Below, piece by piece: positions 7,100 to 39,800 of a DNA stretch of 45,398 nucleotides. The DNA is taken from assembly GCA_905331295.1 (NCBI GenBank), contig CAJNYD010000407.1, positions 372,001 through 417,398 on the forward strand, in the 5' to 3' direction. This DNA comes from Rotaria socialis (Eukaryota). Both the position numbers and the translations under genes were made by a program. The notes beneath the pieces were generated by a model that worked only from the letters and a program-made list of their open reading frames with translations, searched no databases and had not been told where the DNA came from. The stretch's first letter is position 1. Every line of letters begins with the position of its first letter.

Positions 7100-7184
7100 G
7101 GCTCGATTAAAACAATTTTCCATTACAGAAGCAGTTAGATCGTTTGTCTATCTTCAAGACAATTCTAAATTGTTACTGTTAACC

Positions 7185-8054
7185 ATGAATGTTTCACCTT
7201 TACAATTGGATACCAATTGTTTCAATAATACATCTCATTATCATCCCTCTTATTATGGTAACAATATGTCTTCAACTTGGTCGTCATCATCATCTCTACT
7301 TTGTCCATCGGCAACCATGACTTATCAAACATCATCTTTACCATCTGCTCTCCAACCTATCGAAAATTATTGTTCAATTGACACCTATTATCCATCAAGT
7401 TCAGAACCAATAGCATCATCATCCGAAATGTCTGTTTATTCTTCGTCATCACAATTTTCATCGGCACCTATTCTTCCTCCACCTCATCTCTATTCATCAA
7501 ATGATTTTATCGTTCAATCGTCATCTTCATCAACAATGATGTTACCACAAAATCGCGCCAATTATACACGCCACCAACTTGTTATGCTGAATGAAATTTT
7601 TAAAAAACATAAATATCCAAATAGTTTACAGAAAACACTTATCGCGAAATATATTGGTGTATCACGTGATCAAATACGTATATGGTTTCAAAATAAACGT
7701 CGAAAAGTACAATTAATCAATAAAGGCCAAGCAAAGCAAACAAAAAATGATGTCGAATGTGAGTATGGAGAATATCGACGGCACTTACCAAAAAATTTTC
7801 TTGGTGATCTTTTTCAAGAATTATATAAAGCTCGTGGAGCACCTGCACGTCTACCAGTTAAACGTGATAATAATTCTAAAATCGACAATACTGAACATGA
7901 ACAACAAAATCTTTATTATTATCCAACAACAATGAATTCAAATTATTATTACGAGCCAAATCATTTAATTGAGCAAGATGATTCATCACACGAAGAAAAT
8001 CACGGTCAATACTTACCGAATTATGCTCATCATGTCTACTCAGATCGTTTATAG
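7185..8054 (+). CDS. Intronless divergent homeodomain transcription factor (Q50) with Ser-rich N-terminus
   Basis: Long ORF with NRANYTRHQLVMLNEIFKKHKYPNSLQKTLIAKYIGVSRDQIRIWFQNKRRK (R5, F20, YP, WFQN.R). First ATG at 7185; AATAAA near 8115. Confidence 0.9.
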   Translation: MNVSPLQLDTNCFNNTSHYHPSYYGNNMSSTWSSSSSLLCPSATMTYQTSSLPSALQPIENYCSIDTYYPSSSEPIASSSEMSVYSSSSQFSSAPILPPPHLYSSNDFIVQSSSSSTMMLPQNRANYTRHQLVMLNEIFKKHKYPNSLQKTLIAKYIGVSRDQIRIWFQNKRRKVQLINKGQAKQTKNDVECEYGEYRRHLPKNFLGDLFQELYKARGAPARLPVKRDNNSKIDNTEHEQQNLYYYPTTMNSNYYYEPNHLIEQDDSSHEENHGQYLPNYAHHVYSDRL

Positions 8055-9349
8055 AGTACTTCTATTTGTTTTTTTTTGTCGACTTGGTCTTTTGTTTTCT
8101 ATTCTATTCTATAAATAAATAATTGAAAAACTTTCTTGTCTTGTTCTCCATATATGAATTTATTATTTTGTCATATTTTTTTAATCTAACACCTTCAAAT
8201 TTGTCATCACTAGAAGAACTTTTCATTCCGAATATGTATGTCATTTAGAAGAAGTAAAAATTGCCTAATCGAACATTAATTATTGAACTCTATCGAGTTA
8301 AATATCGCCCTATTATCATTGTTTTTACTCATTGTCATTTTGTATTAAATACTTTTGCATCATTCCGATTATTCTGTTCAACTACAAAATGCACTTTCAT
8401 ATCCTGTCGACACTAGTTTTTATCGTCTACTCTTGAGCTCATATTATAAAAGCATCGTCGTGTTTTTTTTTTTTTCGTAAATAGGATAGAACGTTTACCA
8501 TAAGTGTAGGAAGACACAGTACCGATTCAATATAAAAAGGTTGTGTAAATATGTTTTGTGATGCATTAGATTTTAACATACAAAATCCGGAATCTCTACT
8601 TGTTCTCTGATTTTCCCCTCAAAAGTTATCGGTAACGTAATCGATGCAGTTTTTAGTCGAGTTCCAGACAGACTACATTGTTTTTCACATTTTCGAATAG
8701 TTATATCTAAATGGAAGAGATTGTTATAAGAAACGCACGCAATTCTCATTTTTATTAAAAATTCTATGTAGTTTTTAGATACATAAATATTACCATTATT
8801 GATTTGTTTGAGAAAGCACGTTCGTTTAGACTATCTATGAAATATCGATATAAAATGCACATGATAGAGGATTTGATTGATCATTTACATTACTATATGG
8901 ATTTTAGTGCAATATTCTATGTCATAGAAAAGAACAGAGTATTCTTATATTTTGCATTGGAACTTAAAATTACAAAAGCGTATCTACAATTAGCATACCA
9001 ACAAAATGTCTTTATTTGATAGAAAAAATTTTCAAAATGAAAAAAATCCTGATAGTCATAATCCATGGAATAGCTCTCGATCGATATCAACAAAAATATC
9101 TCGATATTTATTATGAAATTTTCATATTTAATGTAAACATTTTAATCACAATCAACTTATTTCTTTATCATTTTTTTTTTCATAAACTGATATTTATGTA
9201 TATATCACTCTATCAAAATATTCAATACAATAAACATTTTTTTAATCTCCTCTTGACAAAACAACAAAAAATTAGTAGATACAAGAAATAGAATAAGATA
9301 TCTATATAACATATATGTGTTTGTATATTTATATTTCAATTATATAACA

Positions 9350-12300
9350 TCATGTTGAAGTTGAAACAGATGGAGATGACGCCAGAATAGTTTTTAAACG
9401 AATAATACATTTTGCTAGGTCTGTTTTTTTAATTAAATTATATAATTGAAGTGTAGCCAAATGTAAATAAAAGTTTTTGATAAGACTTTTTTCTCGTAAA
9501 TCTTTTGCATATCTTTCAACGAAAAGTTCACAAGCAAATGGCATTTGACTATCAGCAATGAAACTTGTAAAAAAGAGAAAGACAACGATAATTCCATTTA
9601 GATCTAAATACTTATTTAAATATATTTACTTATGTTTCATAACATGATGATTCCACATAATCATCATTTCTTTTTCACCTTCATTCACATCTTGAAAATC
9701 TTCCATCATACGACGTGATAATTGTTGTGTCCATTCAGGATAAATTTCATCATCGCTATCATTTTGCATATGTTCTGGTTCAATGGGTTGCGCACCTGTT
9801 GTATGACGATAAACTCGAGTTAATGCTGCCCGTCGGCAAACAAATGGTGCATCGTCCATAGCCAAACGACGATAGCGTGGTGGCCTAGCAAAGATAATGA
9901 ATCATAAAATTGTACGCCTATTAAAAAGAAATGCATTTTTCGCTTTTTACCGCCAAAGAATTAATTCACTAGTAATACGTTTTTTACGTGGATAATATTC
10001 AGAAAACATATCAAATGTATCAAGTGACCCATCATAGAATGCATTAATACGTATTTCAATATTAGGTCGATCACTGTTTTTCTAAAAGTAGAAATGAAAT
10101 CAAGGTGTAATCTCTATGAGTAATGAGGTTCGAAAATATGTCAATAAGTGTCATCGGTAAATGAGAGTTTTTTTTTATCTGTGGGACGTAGTCTTTTCCC
10201 ACCATACCATTGATTTCTGGTTAGAGAAAAGATCTTAGACTGATTTTGATGAAAACTATTGTCCACATGTGTATAAATTATAAATTTATAATTTCGTACT
10301 GAGGTTTCAGTTCAATATCTAGTTTTCTCGGTTACAATCAAAGATTTTTTTAATTTGATTCAATCATGCTGAAATTTTACCTTTAATGAAGCAGCGAAAC
10401 GTGGATGACAATAAGATAAATGTTTAATTAATACTTCTACATCATTATTGATAGCTGTAAATTGACAAAAACAGCAATGACCTTTCGATGACATATAACT
10501 AGTGGCTAAACATTGCTTATTTTCCGCTACAAAACTATAGAATAGTGGTAAATGTGTTGATGAACTATGATCATTATTGGATTGATTATCACGCCATAAT
10601 GATAGATTAGTACTATTATTTGAATTTTTATCTAACAATAGAAAATTTAATCATGAAATTTTGATCATCAATATGATTATATACTAGGCTTTTGTGTTGT
10701 TTTCATTCGTTTAGCATTAGGATCTTGATATTGCTGCTCTTGATGATGAGATGCTGGAATTTTACTTGGTGATATTGGTTGTCTTTTTCTTGTTGATGTT
10801 CCACTTCTTAACATTTCAACAGCTTCTCTAGTAAGATCGAAAAATATTGGAAATGTTGTTGGAAATTGAGACAATATTGTTTTTGACTAAAATGAATTTT
10901 TTTCTCAATAGATGAATAAATCAAAGCGAGTCGAATAATTTTTACTATTTCTTGTCCATTATTTAAAACGGGTGTCAGTTGAATTTCAAATGATTGTTTT
11001 GTTGACATAGGTTGTCGAGGATCAAATAGTGAATTTAGTTGAACACGCTTTCCATATGATATTGAAACTTTATTTCCATCACCTGAGCAAACAAGAATCA
11101 AAACAAAATTATTCAATCTTTAGTCAAAAAACAAGACTAGAAATCTTATACCACGACTAGCTGTAATTGTACTTGAAAATGTTAATGTATATGTATATTT
11201 CGTTGAAACATGAAATGAAATTGTTGATGATTCATCGTCATCGTCATCTTTCATTGACGATGACATACCACGAGGTGATGCTGAATCAATTCGACCCAGT
11301 TTCATTGTTCGAGATACATTTGATGTATTAAGTGAATTATTTTCTACACACGAAGCAGATAAATCAAATGAAATATTATGTTTAGTTCCACGTCGATCTG
11401 TTAAACAGCCTGTTGAAAAATAAAACTGTTAAGAAAATGAAATAAAGAGAGAAAAAATAAATAAGTTACTTGGATCATATGACCAGCCACGTAAATGTAA
11501 ATTAAAAGCATCGCCACGTAATAATGACGATGCAGTTTTATTCAGACTTTCGCCTAATCGTGATTTAAATATTTCTTCTATGGACAGATGTTGATTTGAA
11601 ACACTAGAAAAATTTACAAATTTTTATTTTATTTTTTATTTAAATAGACAAATTTTACCGATTAGAATGAATGGGCGTTCGAGCAATATGAACATATTTT
11701 AAGTTTCGATGTAGAAAACTTGGCTGAACAAAAAGAAGACATGAGTTTAATGATTAGTGTATCCTTTTCGTAAGATAAATTTTAAAAAATAGTTAATTTT
11801 TTCGAAAATGTCCTTTCCAAGATGTTTTTCTGAGTTTTAAGACATTAAAAGAAAAGTCTAAACTAGAGAAGTTGACGCATCGTTCAATGTCTCAATCGTC
11901 GAATAGAATAGCATAGAATGAAATTGAGACTGAGAAAGACAGTTTTGTTATCCATTAAAATATTTCCGTTACTTTTATTGTAATTCAGTTAGATGTAACT
12001 TCTGATACTATGTCCAATGTTCATATAAAGATTACTTCCAATCTCTTCATGAAAAAACACATATATCGCCTAACTACAGATATTATGTGTTTATTGATCA
12101 GTTCCAATAGGTGAAACTGATGTCAGTCAATAGTTTGCATGGAGAAAAGCTGTAAAATAAACTCTATGAACATCATTAGGAGAGATATGTTAAATGATTC
12201 TAATACAAGAAATGAACAACTTTATTCGTCGATACACTCCTGACACTCGATTATTTAGTCACATTTTATTAACAATTGTTACAAACTATATATATATATA

Positions 12301-12621
12301 TATTGGATTTTTTCACTTGGAAAAACTACAGGAAAGGCGCAATATTCTGATTCTCAAGAAAAAAAGCTTTTCTACATAATATATAAAGTCAATTATTTCA
12401 TTTATAAATATCAGTTCAATATTTATTTCTAGGTTTGACAGAAGACTTTATTTTGAAAATTTTCTAAACTTACATTGGTTTGCCAACGAAGAGCTAATGT
12501 TTTATATATCTGAATATGTTCTAAAATTCATTAAAAAACATTGTCTTGATGAGAAACAAATACTAAGTATATGCATCTTACTAGCAAATGTTTCGATATT
12601 ATCATTCCAATTTTTAGACAT
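9350..12621 (-). CDS. SUZ12: Polycomb PRC2 subunit SUZ12 homologue, multi-exon
   Basis: Spliced N-terminus MSKNWNDNIETFAKHIQIYKTLALRWQTNPSFLHRNLKYV resembles the SUZ12 QIYRFLRTR..PIFLHRTLTYM block; zinc finger CCFC...LIKHLSYCHPRF; IEIRINAFYDGS; VEFS box DSDDEIYPEW...MMEDFQDVNEGEKEMMIMWNHHVMKH.FIADSQMPFACELFV. Introns checked are GT-AG and in frame. Confidence 0.92.
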
Positions 12622-12687
12622 ATTTATCTAAAACATAAAAAAAATCGATCGATACATAATGTTTTCTATCAAAAAAAAACTAAGGAA

Positions 12688-14014
12688 TTAAATTGATTTT
12701 TTTATTCGACCAGAGCTAGCTCGAAATAAATTGGTATCACTCAATTTTTCTTGTTCCATTGCATCAAGAATATCTTGATCAAGTGTTATGTGACCTAGAA
12801 TAAAAATATAATATGCAAAAAATGAAAGATGCTAAACCAAACACAAAAAAGAATACTTACCAAATGTACCTTTATTGAATTCATTAATGAAATGTAACGC
12901 TGCACCTGTCAAATCATAGCCTCGTTTATTTCCATATACTTGTGTACATTTTTTTAGCTTTGCTATTGCAGTTAGAACAGTTAATATGTCATCAGTTGGT
13001 CTATCAAGTTCACAATATTTCATGTATAAACGTTGTTGTTCATATTTATTTAATAGAAATAAGCCATAGTCAGCAATTATATCAGATAGTTCACGTTGTT
13101 GAATTGGTATACAATTAGTTAAAAGTAATCGAAAACTTTCATTAGCTGATTTTAAACGTGGCTCAAGTATGCCAGGCGTGTCACGTACAAATACTTTTGG
13201 TCGATTTGATATTTTAACTTTTTCACTCATGCTTCGTGTGACACCAGGACTTGCGCCAACACGTTCACAACTGGCTTTATTTGCAAATAAATTACGAAGT
13301 TTATTAACTAGAAAGAATCATGAATTTTGTTTTCTGATATCGAAATTTCAAAAAACAAAAACGAAGATGAACATACTAAACGTTGATTTGCCAACATTAG
13401 GTATTCCACACACAACAATATTATATTCAATTGATGAACGTCTTGTATAACGTGGTGATTCAACTATTTGTTGAAGAAGACGACCGAATAGATTTGTTAA
13501 TTCTTTCATATCAATTGACATTAAACTTGTATGAACAACTTGTGTATTTGGTTGTTCAATTTGAATGTATTCCATTGATTTATTTACATAATGTGGATCG
13601 GCTAAGTCTGACTTATTAAGTATAAGTAAGTGTGGCTTATGGCCACCAACCAATCGCTTATATAGCTCTGAATTACGACCAGAATGTGGAACACGCGCAT
13701 CATGAACTTCAATAATACCATCAGTACGTAATAGTGATTCTTCGAGATCTTTCATACCTTTGTGCATATGACCGGGAAACCATCTAAATAAATGTATTTT
13801 TCAAAAGCATGGAATGACTTTCGCCTTCGAAATAAAAGAAAAGTACGCTCGACCCTTCGCGATGATTTTATGACAATATAATATTTTTCGAAAATTATCA
13901 AAACAAATTCTCAGTTCTAAAAACTAATTACTAAACAGGAACAAACCGAATCATGTCTTTCCATCGTAGAGATTGAAAATCGAATTGATTTCGAAATATT
14001 GCCAGCGGTTTCAT
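12688..14014 (-). CDS. MTG1: Mitochondrial ribosome-associated GTPase 1 (RbgA/YlqF family, circularly permuted); 4 exons
   Basis: Exon 1 MKPLAIFRNQFDFQSLRWKDMIR joins WFPGHM; IEVHDARVP, G4 NKSD before G1 GIPNVGKST, G3 DTPGI; terminal exon GHITLDQD...KKSI-TAA (stop 12690-12688). Confidence 0.93.
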
Positions 14015-14297
14015 GTTCAATTCGATATAACACAGAAGACCTATTCTTCTTGTCTTCGACACCAACAAATACCTTATTCTAATTGATGAACGGAGTCGAC
14101 CAATGGCAAAAATTTTTTAAATAAATTCATCGAATGTGGCGCTCAAGATTTCTTTCGATTCGTCAAACCAATGAACAATATTCACAATACAACACAATGT
14201 GAAATCAAATTCACAGAAAAACGGAAAACTCATTAAGGAATTACCTAAACGAAAAGAACCTTTTTTAATTTTCATTCTATTTTCATATGAATTGATT

Positions 14298-16369
14298 ATG
14301 CGTGATGAATCTCAACTAATGGCTACAACGTTAAATGCAACAACATCTCCTTCAAATTCAACATCTAATAATAATGTTGAAGGACTTAAATTAACCGAAG
14401 CTGTTGTTAAAACATTTCGTAATGCTCGTGTTTTTCATGAAAATACAGATAGAATAAATGCATTGGATTTTTCTGCTAATGGTGAAACATTAATTACAAG
14501 TAGTGATGATGACTCTATTGTTATATATGATTGTCAAGCTGGATCGTACGTATTCATGAGTTTTCTAACTTTCTCTTATGTATTCGTTAAATAATAAAAC
14601 AATTTACTATTGTTATTTGTTCAAGAGCTAAGAAGACCCTTAATAGCAAAAAATATGGTGTCGATCTAATTCGTTTTACACATGCAACAAATACAGTTAT
14701 ACATAGTTCAACAAAAATTGATGGTAATTTAAGAAATCTTTCTTAATGAATTTAACTGATAGTTATTTATTTTTTTAGATACGATTCGATTTTTATCATT
14801 ACATGATAACAAATATATTCGATATTTTCCTGGTCATGTTCGAAAGTAAAATCGAATATTTGAGTTTGTATTTGTAATTGATCATTTAATCTTTTTTTTC
14901 AATTAGAGTTATTGCATTATCAATGTCACCGGTCGATGATATATTCTTGTCTGGTTCTCTTGATAATACGATTCGATTATGGGATTTAAAATCAGCTAAC
15001 TGTGCAGTTAGTGTTCCGTGTTTTTAACAGTTTATTTACAATGATTGATAATGCATTTTTGTTATTTGACAGGGTCTGATGCATTTGAATGGTCGACCAG
15101 TTGCAAATTTTGATCCAGAGGTAAGATATTTTTTTAATATATTTAAAATCAATGATTAAATCTTATATACGTAGGGTCTTATTTTCGGTGCTGGCATTAC
15201 GTCTGAAATGATTAAATTGTATGATTTACGTTCATTCGATAAGGTTATTTTATTGGATTTGAATTTGCAAAAGAAAAATATTTCTATATTTTATAATAGG
15301 GTCCTTTTTCAACATTTCAATTACCAAAAGAGAAAGATTGTGAATGGACAAGTTTGAAATTTAGCGCCGATGGTAAAACCATTATGCTTACCACGAATGG
15401 TAATATTATTCGTTTAATTGATGCATTTACTGGACAACTTAAGCATACTTTATCGGTTTGTTGAAATACAATTAAATTCATAAATTAATTTACACTCATT
15501 ATCGTTTTGCTTGTATTACAGGGCTTTTCAAATACAAAAAATGTGCCCATCGAAGCTTCATTCAGTCCGGACGCTCAATTTGTCTTTTGTGGTGTGTAAA
15601 ATAGAATGAAAATATACGATAGTATTTTTGTTTTAACATGATCTAAAGGGAATAGTGAAAGAAAATATGAGAGATATGGTATTCTCCTCAAACTATGACA
15701 GATTCTCTAACTCGAGATATTGTACATTAATGATGTCTCGTTATAATATGTAGATAAGTTTTGTATTACTTTGAAATGCCAATAATCAATTGAAGAATGA
15801 CGTCTATAATTAGGATTGGGAAATTTCTTGACCTCACTTTGATTTTCATTGAGAGTTTTATCTGAATTTTTAAATATTTTTCTTAGTTCAAGGATTTATG
15901 AATTTTTGTAACTTTAACTTCTAAACTGATTTATACTGTTCATTAATATACTGAAATATCTAATAATTGACCTTCGACCTGATAAAAAAAAGAATGGTTA
16001 TTTCATAATTCTCAATTTAACAATCGGATTTGAAATAAATGAAAAAGAATATCTTTCTCGGATTAACTAGAACAATTATATTGTGTTTCAAACTTTTATC
16101 CTGTAGATATTGTATGAATAGTTATCAATCTATATTTAGGTGCCAGTGATGGTCGTATTCACTGTTGGAATGCTGAAACAGGTAATCGTGTATGTACACT
16201 TGTTTCTGATTCAATGTCTGGTCAAACAATCGTTTCTATGAATCCAAAATTTATGCTACTTGTTAGTGCATCGAATCAACTGGTATGCTTTTTTTTCCAT
16301 GGCTGTTTAAACTATTATTATTATTATCTTGTTTAGATTTTTTGGTTGCCACATCTTGATGATTTGTAA
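14298..16369 (+). CDS. WDR82: WD repeat protein 82 (Swd2; SET1/COMPASS and PNUTS-PP1 subunit), multi-exon
   Basis: [25 protein letters not shown]...[55 protein letters not shown]-terminal FWLP. Start could be ATG 14298 or 14319. Confidence 0.95.
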
Positions 16370-16576
16370 ACTAGACTAGGACATTTACAACTGTTGTTAT
16401 CGATGTTGTTTTTGTTTTTCTTTCTTGTTGTGTATATTGTTTCATGCTTGGTCATACTTTTTGTTTCTTTCTGTGTTTTTTTTCCTGCAAATTTGAAGAT
16501 TAAATAAGAAAAATAACGTGTTCTTAAAAAAGTCTAAGTGAAAATTTAGCGTCAAATTTATTTTAAAATGATAGTT

Positions 16577-17991
16577 TTATTTTGGTGCTGGTTCAGAAAA
16601 TAATTTGGCCATATCAAGTCTTATATGAGCTCGTTTGTATGCTTCCAATGGCCCTTGTGGGTCATCGGGTGCGCTGTATGCGACATAAGCAGCATTTTCA
16701 CCATAGTCAAGAACGAAATTAATTGCATTACCGGTTTCTGCAACACTCGTAATATTTTGAATGATAATTTCTGGACTCAATTGGCCATAACCTTTGACAA
16801 GCAAACTACCTAAACATGGATCATCTGATGGTTGAACATGTTTATCCCAATAGACAACATTTTTCAATCGTGGATGATGTGGTGTATCAAACATATCTTC
16901 CCAATTGTAGATATTCAATTCATTTGCACTATATTCAATACCACGAAATCCAATATTTTCATCATTCATAGCTGATACATTGCGTTCATATGAACCAAGT
17001 CCAAGATGAATTGAGCACGTTCGATGAGCATTAGTAAACATTGTTAAAGCTGAATCAATCGAATGTGAAAATTGAAGAACGTCACGAAGAACATAAGTCC
17101 ATGGATTTCCAAAACGTGTTGTTATATCTTGTTCTTTTGTAATCCATACTTTTTCGCCTAAACCAATTGAAGCTTCACTATAGCCACCGATCGATCCAAT
17201 CATACCCAGATAACCAATATTAGCAAATGCGTGTGATTTATAATTTTCTTGTTTATAAAACTCATGAAAATGATCCGCATAACCCTCGTAGGATGCATTT
17301 GGATGATAGATAGTTACTATGGCATAGTTAGCAAGAGGAGCTTGATCGTCCCAATCAAGTGATCGTACATGAAGTAATGCTGATGTTAACGTTGATTCGC
17401 CCCATGCACCGAGAACAGTACACGCAGCTTTGATTAGTTCTGGAATTAAATTCAACCGACGAATATTTTGATAAGATACACCACTACCAGCAGCAATACC
17501 TCGAATTTCTTCATCAAACCAAGGAGGTGTATAGATACGCGTTATTTCATAATTCAAATCAAGAGCACCTGGTATACCTAGTTCTGCAATCCATTTTGCA
17601 ACAAACTGGGCAAAGAAAAAATATTATTTTGAGGAAAACAAAATTGAATTTTAAAAAATTTTACTGGTGGTAGTTTTTTCAATTCATCTTCAATTGTTTT
17701 ATCCAAATAACCAAAATATTCAGGAATAAGTATATTCAATTCTTTACTCATCAATGAACCTAATGCATAACCCATATCGTATGGTGTACCGCCATAGACA
17801 TGAACAATATTAATTTTAGTGTAATCTGTTCCAACAACAAACCGTTTTCCATTTGGTACAGAACTTACAAAAGTGGGCTCATCTCGTATTATTGGATTTG
17901 TATTATAATTACCCGTACAACTTGGATCAAGTAAATGAACCGGATATATAACAGCAAAAAGACAAAATAATGAGAGATGTATGCTACTCAT
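16577..17991 (-). CDS. Secreted/lysosomal Ntn-hydrolase of the acid ceramidase/NAAA/peptidase C45 group (Dictyostelium dcd1-like); 2 exons (17991-17665, 17605-16577)
   Basis: Signal peptide MSSIHLSLFCLFAVIYPVHL; HVYGGTPYDMGYALG; EEIRGIA; autocleavage nucleophile motif ELIKAACTVLGAWG followed by HVRSLDW; 59-nt GT-AG intron keeps frame. Confidence 0.8.
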
Positions 17992-18537
17992 ATCTACGAG
18001 GTCTAAGCGAATACTGTTTGCTATTAGAAATAGTTTGAAGAAAGCTGACAGAAGGTTTATTCTCACAATCACATTGATTTATGAAGAAATACACATATGT
18101 TGCATGTGCATTTGTTTTTACTTATTTGATGCGTTATCAGGATAATATTTAAAGTACTTCAGCATGAAAAAGTATTCCTTTTTTTTTTATAAATCTTAGT
18201 ACATGAAATATAGCTTACTGTTTTATGACTATTAATATATTTATTTTTAATTTTCTCTCGATAATATAGTCATAAAATTCAATAGATTCACAACAGGCCA
18301 ATATATAATTGAAAACATTTTCCCATTCATTTGAATATTTGTTTATTTTCGTTTGAAAGTCAACATATTATTCAAGTAAAAAGAAGTCTTATATACATTT
18401 GGTCGATAGATTTCAATGGTTCTTGCCGATCATCCTGTACATTGTATGCGAAAGAAATAACATTTTTACTAGAAGCAAAAATTTAATTGAGCATATTTTC
18501 TATTTCTAGTAAAGTAAATAGATTTCAAAATGTACTT

Positions 18538-32134: not shown

Positions 32135-32201
32135 ATCTAAAAACAAAGAGTATGAATTATATCCTTTCTTGTATTTTATTCATAAGAAAACAAAAAGCTA
32201 A

Positions 32202-35919: not shown

Positions 35920-36607
35920 ATGGGTATCAGCCGTGACCATTGGCATAAACGACGAAAGACTGGTGGCAAACGACCACAACCACACAAGAAACGAAAATTC
36001 GAATTAGGTCGGCCAGCGGCTCTTACCAAATTGGGTACAAAGCGTATTCATACTGTACGAACAAGAGGTGGCAATAAAAAATATCGTGCACTTCGTCTTG
36101 ATATTGGTAATTTTTCATGGGGTTCAGAAGGTATTGCAAAAAAAACTCGTGTCATCGATGTTATGTACCATCCATCGAACAATGTTTGTATTTTTTCAAT
36201 TACTTGATTTTTTAAAAATTCTAATTGTTTTTCTTTCTTATTAGGAGTTAGTGCGTACAAAAACATTAACAAAATCAACCATCGTACAAATCGATGCTGT
36301 GCCATTCCGTCAATGGTATGAATCCTATTATGCAGTACCACTTGGCCGTAAGAAAGGTGTTAAATTAACTGAAGCTGAAGAAGCTGTACTCAATCGTAAA
36401 CGTTCAGCTAAATCAGCAAAGAAAATAGCCGTAAAACAACGTCGCGCTAAAGTCGAACAAGGACTTGAAGAGCAATTTCAAGCTGGACGTGTCCTCGCCT
36501 GTATTGCATCTCGACCGGGTCAAAACGGCCGATGTGATGGATATGTGCTTGAAGGCAAAGAACTCGATTTTTACATGAAGAAGATCAAACAAAAAAAATC
36601 CAAATAG
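35920..36607 (+). CDS. RPS8: 40S ribosomal protein S8 (eS8); intron 36184-36244
   Basis: [18 protein letters not shown]...[10 protein letters not shown]...[22 protein letters not shown]. Confidence 0.99.
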
Positions 36608-36801
36608 AATATGCATGTTTAAATGAAAAAAAATTGTTTCTTTTTGTGTCTTGTATCATCATCGTTTTGTTATTCTAAACAAAAAAAAACAATAACAACA
36701 AAGGCTTACAAGAAGAAATGTTTTGGAAAAAATAAAGAAAACAGCATAAAAATAAAAATATCTGATTTATGTTTTTGTTTTCTAGATAGAAAATAAAAAT
36801 C

Positions 36802-39800
36802 ATGACCAGTTCAGATTCAGTTGAACAAAATAAACAACAAGAAGGAAATAAGGATGATGCAAAAAAACCAATTGAAGTTAAAGAAGAAGATTTAGTATGT
36901 CGCATAGGATTATTTGAGATTAGACTTTGATATTATTTATTTAGTCGGAAGAAGATAAACAATTAAAAGAAGAACTTGAATTATGTGTTGAGCGTTTAAA
37001 AGTAAGTTCGCAAATATAACAATAACGCTTTAATATAAAGTTTTTTTTTCTCTTTTTACAGGAGAATGATACGAATTTATATCGAGCCGCACTTGAAACG
37101 CTTCGACAAAAAATTCGTGAGTCAACTAGTTCAATGACAAGTGTACCAAAACCTTTGAAATTTATGAGACCATTTTATAATGATATGATTGCAATTTATG
37201 AAAAAATTCTTGATGTTCATAATAAAGTATTTATTTTATTGTTACTTTTCAATAGGCTTATGTCTACATATAAATTATGTTTTTTTTCTTTAGGCTCTAT
37301 GTGCTGATATTGTTTCAGTCCTTGCTATGACAGCAATTGACACCAAAGAAGTACTCAAATATCGTTTATTAGGTTCAAATCAAGATATCGGCACGTGGGG
37401 CCATGAATACATTAGGTGAGCAATTCTATTCAACTAATTGCATGATTTTATTGAATCCATAACATATAATTTATAAATCAGAAACTCATTTAGAGCAGAA
37501 AATATTTAAAAAGTGAATTTTTTTGTAAATATATTTGAATATTTAGAGTAAAATATAAATTGAAGAGTTTTCGTCATTCTTCGAATCCTTTTGAAAAATT
37601 TTTAATGTTGACGGTGGCTTCAAGGCCAACGGAAAAAAGTTTCACAATGTTCTTTGAAGAATAATAAAAAATGGTTAAAAGAAAACGATCCAGCACACAC
37701 ATCAAAGTCTAAATAAAACTAATTTCTGCAATAGACCTTAATATAGGCTAAAACTATCATAATGAATCATGAAGACAAAAAAAAAGGTTGCAGCGGTAAC
37801 ATATACACAAATGAGTAACCCAAATAAAATATTCAAGAAGAATTAAACTAGACGAATAAATTTAATTTGAGTTTACTTGATGTTCAACTGAGTTTTATCG
37901 ATAGAAATTTTTTTTTATTGTAAGTAATTATTACACTTTAATTATTTGAATATCGCACTGATCGCATTTTGGGTTATTCCACGAAAACTTAATAGATCGG
38001 ACATAATGAATCAAATCAAATGCAAATGCAAATTTTCTTTTCATACCAAATATTCATATTTGAAAAGATAGATAAATTTCGCCTTTGATCGGGCCGATCT
38101 ATATTCAAGTTTTCTCTTGCCGGAGATTTGTAAATACAGTCCTGATGATTTTTGAAACAAAGATTTTTCCAAGTAGTACTTCAGTTCGAACAGTCCTATA
38201 TAGACACGCAAAAAAAATGCAGCATTTGACTTTCTATCAGATGTAGTGGCTAATGGAATATGTTGTGCTGTAGTTTAATTGAAAAAAGTTAATATAATTA
38301 CAAGGGCTTTTTCATTGTTCTAAAAGGCGAGCAAATTCGCCAGTGGCGACCCCATCCATTATTTGCTACTTTCGTTTCAAATGTCGCACAAGGAATATAT
38401 GTATCGTTCTCTGTGGTATTGAAAATTTACATTTGGCATGATCATTGATTTTTTTTTCACATTATACAAGATTCCATTGTTTAATAGAATAGGCTAAAAT
38501 CAATATCAAAATAAACCTATTCTTTTTTTTTTGTCTAGACATTTATCAGCAGACATTGCTTCTGAATGGGAATCAACAGGAATCAATCCTGAACTTCGCC
38601 AACGTCTCCTTTCATTAACAAATGAAATAGTACCATTTTTAATGCGTCATAATGCTGAAGCTGATGCATGTGATCTTTTAATGGAAATAGAACAATTAGA
38701 TTTAATTGAAACATTTGTTGATAAAGACACTTTTTCACGTGTTTGTCTTTATTTAACTAGGTAAAACAAATGCATTATTTATCATATATTTAAAAAACTA
38801 ATAATTATTGTATTTTTAGTTGTGTACCTTACGTACCTGAACCAGATGATACAAAACTATTACGTACAGCATGTAAACTTTACCGACATTATGATCAATA
38901 TCCATTAGCATTACGTTGTGCTGTACAATTAAATGATATGGATCTTATAAAAGATCTAGTTAATACATGCCCATCAAGGTAATTAGAATTGTTCAATTAT
39001 TTTCGCGAGTTTCTCTCGTTCTATGGTATCGAACTATTTTTTCTCCTGAGTATATGACTACGGTAATAAACACTGATTGAAAATATTTATTCTCTTTCAT
39101 CCATTCAAATTTACTTAAATTATGGTTCATACATTTTTTTGCAAGAAAAAATTGTCCAACGAAAGTGTGCACCAGGAAACTTATTTCAGAATTTAGTCAC
39201 TCTCTCAGCTGCGACTATTTTTTTTAATGCTAAGAGTGGCTCCATATGTCTGCTTCATAATGATAAAAGTTCACAACACCTAATCTACACCTTAGACATA
39301 GGAATATTATGAAATATGATAATAGCGACGTAACGCTAATTCTATTTCATTCAGTGTTACGATTCTAAAAGATGACTGAGTACAATGGTATTTTTCTGCT
39401 AATGAAAGCTTTTCATATAAAAATAGAAAACTCATTGCAAAAAGATTCGCTGTATTGAAAAAATCATGGTTATTTGCTGTTGAACAGGCACTCTTGATGA
39501 TCAACTAATATCTTGATTATATGAAAACTACTGTTAAAAAAAGTCATGCATCAAATAATAACCATATTTATCTACTCCAATGAGAAGTTGAACGAAAATA
39601 TTGATATCTAAAACATAATTTCAAGTGCTTGTTTGCCGTTCAAGGTTAATTATTCTAAGCATATCAGCTCAATATCTTAAAATTTAGGAGCGATGTGCTG
39701 TGTGGCATTTACCAGTGTTTCGAACTGTTTATTTAATATATTGCCTTTCTATTTTAGTTTAGTCAAGAAACAACTTTCATTTATGTTAGGACGACAACAA

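Follow-up and report, generated by a model that had tools for sequence, protein, structure and literature searches.

In a stretch of Rotaria socialis DNA of 45,398 nucleotides (hereafter the window), which is intron-rich and has a GC content of 25-35%, the gene for the Polycomb subunit SUZ12 lies directly behind the gene for the mitoribosome GTPase MTG1 on the minus strand. This arrangement raises the question whether SUZ12 is transcribed from a promoter of its own or as the downstream gene of an operon. A sequence-only reading of the locus had proposed that SUZ12 has no promoter of its own and is co-transcribed with MTG1. The analysis described here leads to the view, held with a probability of roughly 0.75, that MTG1 and SUZ12 form a two-gene operon without intercistronic DNA.

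Gene models and identities

The MTG1 coding region (12688..14014, minus strand) is composed of four exons (14014-13947, 13783-13377, 13307-12861 and 12794-12688) that encode 342 amino acids, which is also the length of the Rotaria protein P0001. Exon 3 is 100% identical to P0001 and 56-91% identical to other bdelloid proteins (16 hits), and the best PDB match of P0001 is the mitochondrial ribosome-associated GTPase 1 (E 3.5e-58). Within the RbgA/YlqF family, where 12 sequences were matched, 200 bits were obtained to MTG1 chains versus 105 bits to RbgA; similarity places the upstream gene closest to MTG1, ahead of bacterial RbgA and the nuclear GTPases. The SUZ12 coding region (9350..12621, minus strand) comprises 11 exons encoding 577 amino acids in the best of four near-identical model fits. 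Its exons match the VEFS-Box of Pfam above the curated cut-off (E 3.4e-20 and 1.3e-11), and a match to Zn_SUZ12 falls under it. The N-terminus is conserved in bdelloids and equals the annotated start in seven of the eight aligned bdelloid SUZ12 proteins, so the ATG at 12621 is taken to be right; it contains an FLHRNL-type motif, which we take to be a mark of SUZ12. With the MTG1 stop codon TAA at 12690-12688 and the SUZ12 ATG at 12621, 66 nt separate the two genes, as the sequence-only reading had it, and the acceptor that it had placed 6 nt before the ATG is found there as a T-rich acceptor ending at G12628.

RNA at the MTG1/SUZ12 boundary

RNA was compared in the contigs of four presumed RNA runs (X1, X2, X3 and X6), out of seven matching the region, over positions 12400-13330. 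The contigs of X1, X2 and X3 represent spliced RNA because they skip GT-AG introns, and the last intron of MTG1 is an RNA joint in two of the four runs, SUZ12 intron 1 in three. A 31-nt piece from X1 (four differences, 12672-12702) and a piece from X6 (12803-12837) were treated as noise.

The SUZ12 contig of X1 (record 1, 2080 nt, spliced) carries 16 untemplated bases joined at the acceptor AG (12628..12629, minus strand). These bases were recognised by a full-text literature search in which they served as the query: together with the AG they equal the last 18 nucleotides of the 23-nt spliced leader "Rotifera 1" (PMC3795323 Table 1), and their best match anywhere in the window covers 12 of 16 positions. 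As the leader joins at the AG at 12629-12628, the first base of the SUZ12 exon is 12627, the very position at which a spliced-leader site had been predicted, and the SUZ12 5' UTR behind the leader amounts to 6 nt (12622..12627, minus strand). The leader is present on the SUZ12 contig in one of the four runs; the X2 contig begins at G12628 and lacks a loose end, that of X3 begins at 12605, and X6 covers exon 2 only. A cis-spliced upstream exon of SUZ12, which would have spoken against the sequence-only reading, appeared in none of the four runs compared.

The MTG1 contig of X1 (record 2, 1130 nt, spliced) agrees with the window without a single difference and contains the joint of the last intron, the stop codon and the entire 3' stretch to A12629, where it ends in 14 untemplated A; poly(A) is seen in one of the four runs, and its junction lies at A12629 or T12630. 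The MTG1 3' UTR spans 12629..12687 (minus strand, 59 nt) and also holds the polypyrimidine tract of SUZ12 and presumably its branch point. The loose ends of both X1 contigs meet at 12629, with 0-2 nt between poly(A) site and acceptor, a boundary defined by one contig per gene from a single run. The MTG1 contig of X3, a run with another organism code that differs from the window by 13 listed substitutions and a 2-nt insertion, ends with eight unaligned letters that were read as the homologue of 12636-12629, and it has no tail.

By these contigs, the MTG1 and SUZ12 mRNAs abut without intercistronic DNA. The 66 bp, at first seen as a spacer of normal length between the cistrons, belong to the two mRNAs, 59 nt to that of MTG1 and 6 nt to that of SUZ12, so that the distance from stop to ATG is set by UTR length. 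Both mRNAs require transcription of the bases 12687-12629. The acceptor ahead of SUZ12 exceeds what chance would give: an acceptor-like site within 10 nt before the ATG is found for only 6 of the 1013 ATG triplets on the minus strand of the window, acceptor-like meaning a YAG preceded by 16 nt that include 11 T or more, a threshold that was chosen after seeing the site (12 T).

Conservation across bdelloid rotifers

Synteny across species had been named as a check of co-transcription, and the order MTG1>SUZ12 proved to be kept across the three bdelloid genera Rotaria, Adineta and Didymodactylos. In Adineta vaga the two genes have consecutive accessions and locus tags (UJR33882.1/UJR33883.1). 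Among the matches listed, 41 of 49 MTG1 CAF accessions are at most 22 numbers away from a SUZ12 accession and eight have no SUZ12 accession near them; accession adjacency, which covers five Rotaria, two Adineta and one Didymodactylos taxa, is an indirect measure of linkage. A second SUZ12 copy of Didymodactylos (P0028) has no MTG1 accession nearby among the matches listed.

A scan of metagenomes yielded 13 loci, 11 of them with SUZ12 directly behind MTG1; the other two are a locus cut inside MTG1 and a spliced MTG1 contig (L011). Seven of the 11 informative loci have one common spacer, which leaves five distinct relatives. The distance from stop to ATG is 63-76 nt in all 11 loci covering both genes, and each of the five distinct spacers ends in YTAG, followed by ATAAA and by the ATG 6-7 nt on. 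The spacer shows an identity to the window of 0.58, versus 0.30-0.42 for the MTG1 introns and 0.55 for SUZ12 intron 1. Order, short distance and acceptor are shown by these comparisons to be conserved across bdelloids.

The wider block at window positions 7101-17623, containing a homeobox gene, SUZ12, MTG1, a WD40 gene and a 348-codon ORF (16580-17623), is syntenic in the loci L003, L005, L010 and L012. The gene to which this ORF belongs (16580-18078, minus strand) has the 348 codons in a single exon and is unusually intron-poor for the window. Pfam gave no match for it at E 0.01; by its appearance it may be an acid ceramidase/NAAA-type hydrolase.

The region upstream of MTG1

A putative divergent promoter region (14015..14297) lies between MTG1 on the minus strand and the WD40 gene on the plus strand (ATG at 14298 or 14319), a head-to-head arrangement that 10 of the 13 loci share with the window. 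The WD40 gene is presumably WDR82-like and would then encode a COMPASS subunit, so that, if we name it correctly, a Polycomb subunit and a COMPASS subunit flank MTG1. This compact region contains GACGAATCG, conserved in all five aligned relatives, as well as GCGCCACA (core 14142-14136) and ATTGG (14104-14100), both present in the window and in the same five relatives; the motifs resemble E2F and CCAAT-box elements. GCGCCACA and ATTGG are conserved promoter-like motifs and would be expected to function as such.

Conserved motifs of this kind occur only upstream of MTG1, and in no relative is the GCGCCA motif found a second time within MTG1. Along MTG1, third-codon identity stays level (0.66-0.80) and does not rise towards SUZ12, which constitutes a weak test for an internal promoter. 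A CCAAT in MTG1 exon 3, formed by Pro-Ile codons, is present in all six aligned sequences. The spliced MTG1 contig L011 begins with 56 nt of 5' UTR that resemble genomic sequence and carries no leader, which fits MTG1 as the first gene. For X1 the 5' end of the MTG1 contig was placed by length arithmetic at about 14042, on an AG; the reading of this AG as an acceptor was dropped, as it is not kept in relatives.

Proposed co-transcription of MTG1 and SUZ12

Co-transcription is the best reading of the locus, from which we infer a single precursor and the absence of a SUZ12 promoter. The use of the spliced-leader acceptor and the conserved gene order speak for the co-transcription that had been proposed from sequence; against it, no contig bridges the MTG1/SUZ12 site in any of the four runs over 12400-13330. 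The leader alone is no proof of an operon, because more than half of bdelloid transcripts were reported to be trans-spliced (PMC1925144).

In the proposed mechanism a single transcript would start in the divergent promoter region, common with the WD40 gene, and run through MTG1 and SUZ12. Splicing of the leader to the AG at 12629-12628, the junction of which is present in RNA, would yield the capped SUZ12 mRNA, and the MTG1 mRNA, with the end seen in X1, would arise by polyadenylation either of the upstream fragment set free in this step or of a molecule cut very close to that site. The trans-splicing cut itself likely makes the MTG1 3' end, with debranching, trimming by 1-2 nt and addition of poly(A) without a canonical AAUAAA to follow, as proposed for Ciona. 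A molecule in which MTG1 is cleaved first would lose the acceptor and could not yield SUZ12. Given the operon, we put the chance that trans-splicing makes the MTG1 3' end at about even.

The principal alternative, again given the operon, is that a weak signal competes with trans-splicing and directs ordinary cleavage and polyadenylation of MTG1, the signal being AAAACA in the window and AATACA or ATTAAA in relatives; this is a serious possibility that falls short of an even chance. Competition between a cleavage signal and trans-splicing is a feature of the SL1-type operons of C. elegans. The AATAAA at 12701..12706 (minus strand), correctly located in the last MTG1 codons by the sequence-only reading, is probably not the poly(A) signal of MTG1: its end lies 72 nt away from the poly(A) junction seen in X1, and it is kept in one of the five distinct relative spacers and is likely a by-product of the Arg-Ile-Lys codons in which it lies. 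Neither AATAAA nor ATTAAA occurs within 70 nt of the MTG1 end in the window. In four of the five distinct relative spacers, as in the window, the 40 nt leading up to the poly(A) site contain no canonical AAT(U)AAA, whereas the fifth has ATTAAA 14 nt before the AG end. AAAACA (12660..12665, minus strand), about 30 nt from the end, aligns with an AATACA that is located 34-41 nt before the AG end in three of the five distinct relative spacers, and is a candidate for a weak poly(A) signal or another element. The motif AATACAGTG is conserved in the 3' UTRs of several relatives (L001:1691-1724, L002, L008 and L011), where it precedes the acceptor end by 34-41 nt, and is degenerate in the window.

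Ordinary cleavage would account for the end of L011, which lies 16 nt past AATACA, lacks the AG and is short of the expected acceptor, and for the tail of X1, which follows without the G. It fits less well with the presence in the window of AAAACA only and with the L003 UTR, which is without an AATACA- or ATTAAA-type hexamer; moreover, independent cleavage need not fall on the acceptor.

A different possibility, considered improbable, is that the two genes are independent and overlap, with a SUZ12 promoter inside MTG1 and an outron that extends over the last exon and the 3' UTR of MTG1. The frequency of trans-splicing in bdelloids, the lack of a bridging contig in the compared runs, the codon-borne CCAAT in MTG1 exon 3 and the SUZ12 copy P0028, which among the matches listed apparently exists without an MTG1 neighbour, would all agree with separate transcription, yet this leaves unexplained why the MTG1 3' end sits on the acceptor, and it is opposed by the tight linkage across three genera and, as a weak test, by the lack of excess synonymous conservation in the 3' half of MTG1.

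Slightly more doubtful is the view that the poly(A) junction is an artefact, created when oligo(dT) primed at an A-rich stretch inside a longer RNA, and that the true MTG1 end lies elsewhere. The 20 bases after 12630 include 11 A, a richness matched by about 3% of positions, and the tail begins 1-2 nt before the G expected from the trans-splicing cut. However, the stretch fails the usual mispriming filter (a run of 6 A, or 8 A among 10 bases), and the artefact requires RNA that extends from spliced MTG1 across the acceptor, which is itself read-through. Furthermore, a 2-nt shift of this kind was attributed by Satou et al. to mispriming on a true AG-poly(A) end (PMC1488885).

Use of the acceptor for cis-splicing into an MTG1-SUZ12 fusion protein, as suggested by the 915-aa models that make up three of the 14 members of one A. 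steineri cluster, was rejected as extremely improbable, since a splice from the GT at 12710 leads out of frame to an immediate stop in the window, the AG-to-ATG distances of 6 or 7 nt in relatives are both out of frame for that donor, and RNA gives two separate mRNAs. The Adineta steineri models are public (P0055, P0062 and P0065); the two that were examined join MTG1 to SUZ12 at the leader acceptor, and the fusions are likely gene-prediction artefacts. The operon layout explains such fused gene models in bdelloid annotations, which could be mined to list bdelloid operons.

Further candidate operons in the window

A candidate three-gene operon was noted at window positions 32897-32134 (minus strand), with an MFS transporter gene followed by LLPH and a DPH5-like methylase gene. 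The MFS gene and LLPH are separated by 205 nt, and an acceptor AG stands immediately in front of the ATG (32691). Between the LLPH stop and the DPH5 ATG there are 67 nt, in agreement with the length given by the sequence-only reading, with an acceptor G at 32137 and an AATAAA 44 nt before the acceptor end, and because of this AATAAA the boundary may keep a short intercistronic stretch. Another candidate operon is located at 36607-36802 (plus strand), where the RPS8 stop is 194 nt from the ATG of the next gene, presumably PSMD2-like, and a T-rich acceptor is found 16 nt before this ATG.

Significance and comparison with known spliced-leader operons

It is nothing unusual for a spliced-leader operon to place a Polycomb subunit behind a housekeeping gene to which it is unrelated. 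Genes in nematode operons were described as rarely related by function, so the pairing of a Polycomb with a mitoribosome gene needs no special explanation and is probably incidental. A possible consequence of the operon is that perturbation of MTG1 could alter PRC2.

The literature searched, which did not extend to supplements or to the 2005 paper on the bdelloid leader, yielded no description of rotifer operon boundaries. In the accessible portions of the bdelloid spliced-leader literature the leader is reported on many mRNAs and neither operons nor boundaries are mentioned (PMC1925144, PMC3795323). A chaetognath paper, in the portion available, mentions rotifers in a loosely worded sentence about "trans-splicing and operonic transcription", with no data alongside. 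The MTG1/SUZ12 boundary agrees with bdelloid trans-splicing as described, the leader being identical over the 18 nt that are visible (PMC3795323).

The gap-free type of spliced-leader operon is already known from Ciona and C. elegans. The SL1-type operons of C. elegans resemble the rotifer case in the U-rich 3' UTR of the upstream gene, and one of them, mes-6/cks-1, has a PRC2 subunit in the upstream position. They share with it the absence of intercistronic DNA and the use of a general leader (PMC1488885, PMC12582326). In contrast to the rotifer site, the three characterised nematode cases have a canonical AATAAA near the end (PMC1488885). The SL2-type operons of C. elegans differ in having about 100 nt of intercistronic DNA and a dedicated second leader, compared with 0-2 nt and a general leader in the rotifer. 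Intercistronic DNA was also reported for operons of Oikopleura (23-30 nt), Schistosoma (median 99 bp) and chaetognaths; operons with such DNA have in common with the rotifer locus that housekeeping genes lie close together in the same orientation and that the downstream gene is trans-spliced.

In the operons of Ciona intestinalis without intercistronic DNA the poly(A) site of the upstream gene likewise abuts the downstream acceptor; poly(A) is added either to the acceptor G itself or 2-6 nt before it, and an AAT(U)AAA within 40 nt is lacking in 16 of the 18 operons (PMC1488885). The lack of a canonical AAUAAA within 40 nt, the single general leader, the joining of unrelated genes and a shift of the tail by 2 nt upstream are features that the rotifer operon has in common with those described there (PMC1488885). 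The two differ in phylum and in leader, and further in that the Ciona tails follow the G in 41 of 55 cDNAs, whereas the single rotifer contig is without it, and in that dicistronic cDNAs were found in Ciona (PMC1488885), whereas none of the rotifer contigs of the four runs is bridging. As far as its accessible text goes, a flatworm paper from 2025 names only the C. elegans SL1-type operons and Ciona as gap-free cases (PMC12582326). Two questions were left open by Satou et al., namely whether Ciona and C. elegans came to their gap-free operons by convergence and how an upstream mRNA can persist when its own 3' UTR contains the branch point (PMC1488885). Both become testable with a conserved gap-free case from a third phylum, in animals that can be cultured and for which many genomes exist.
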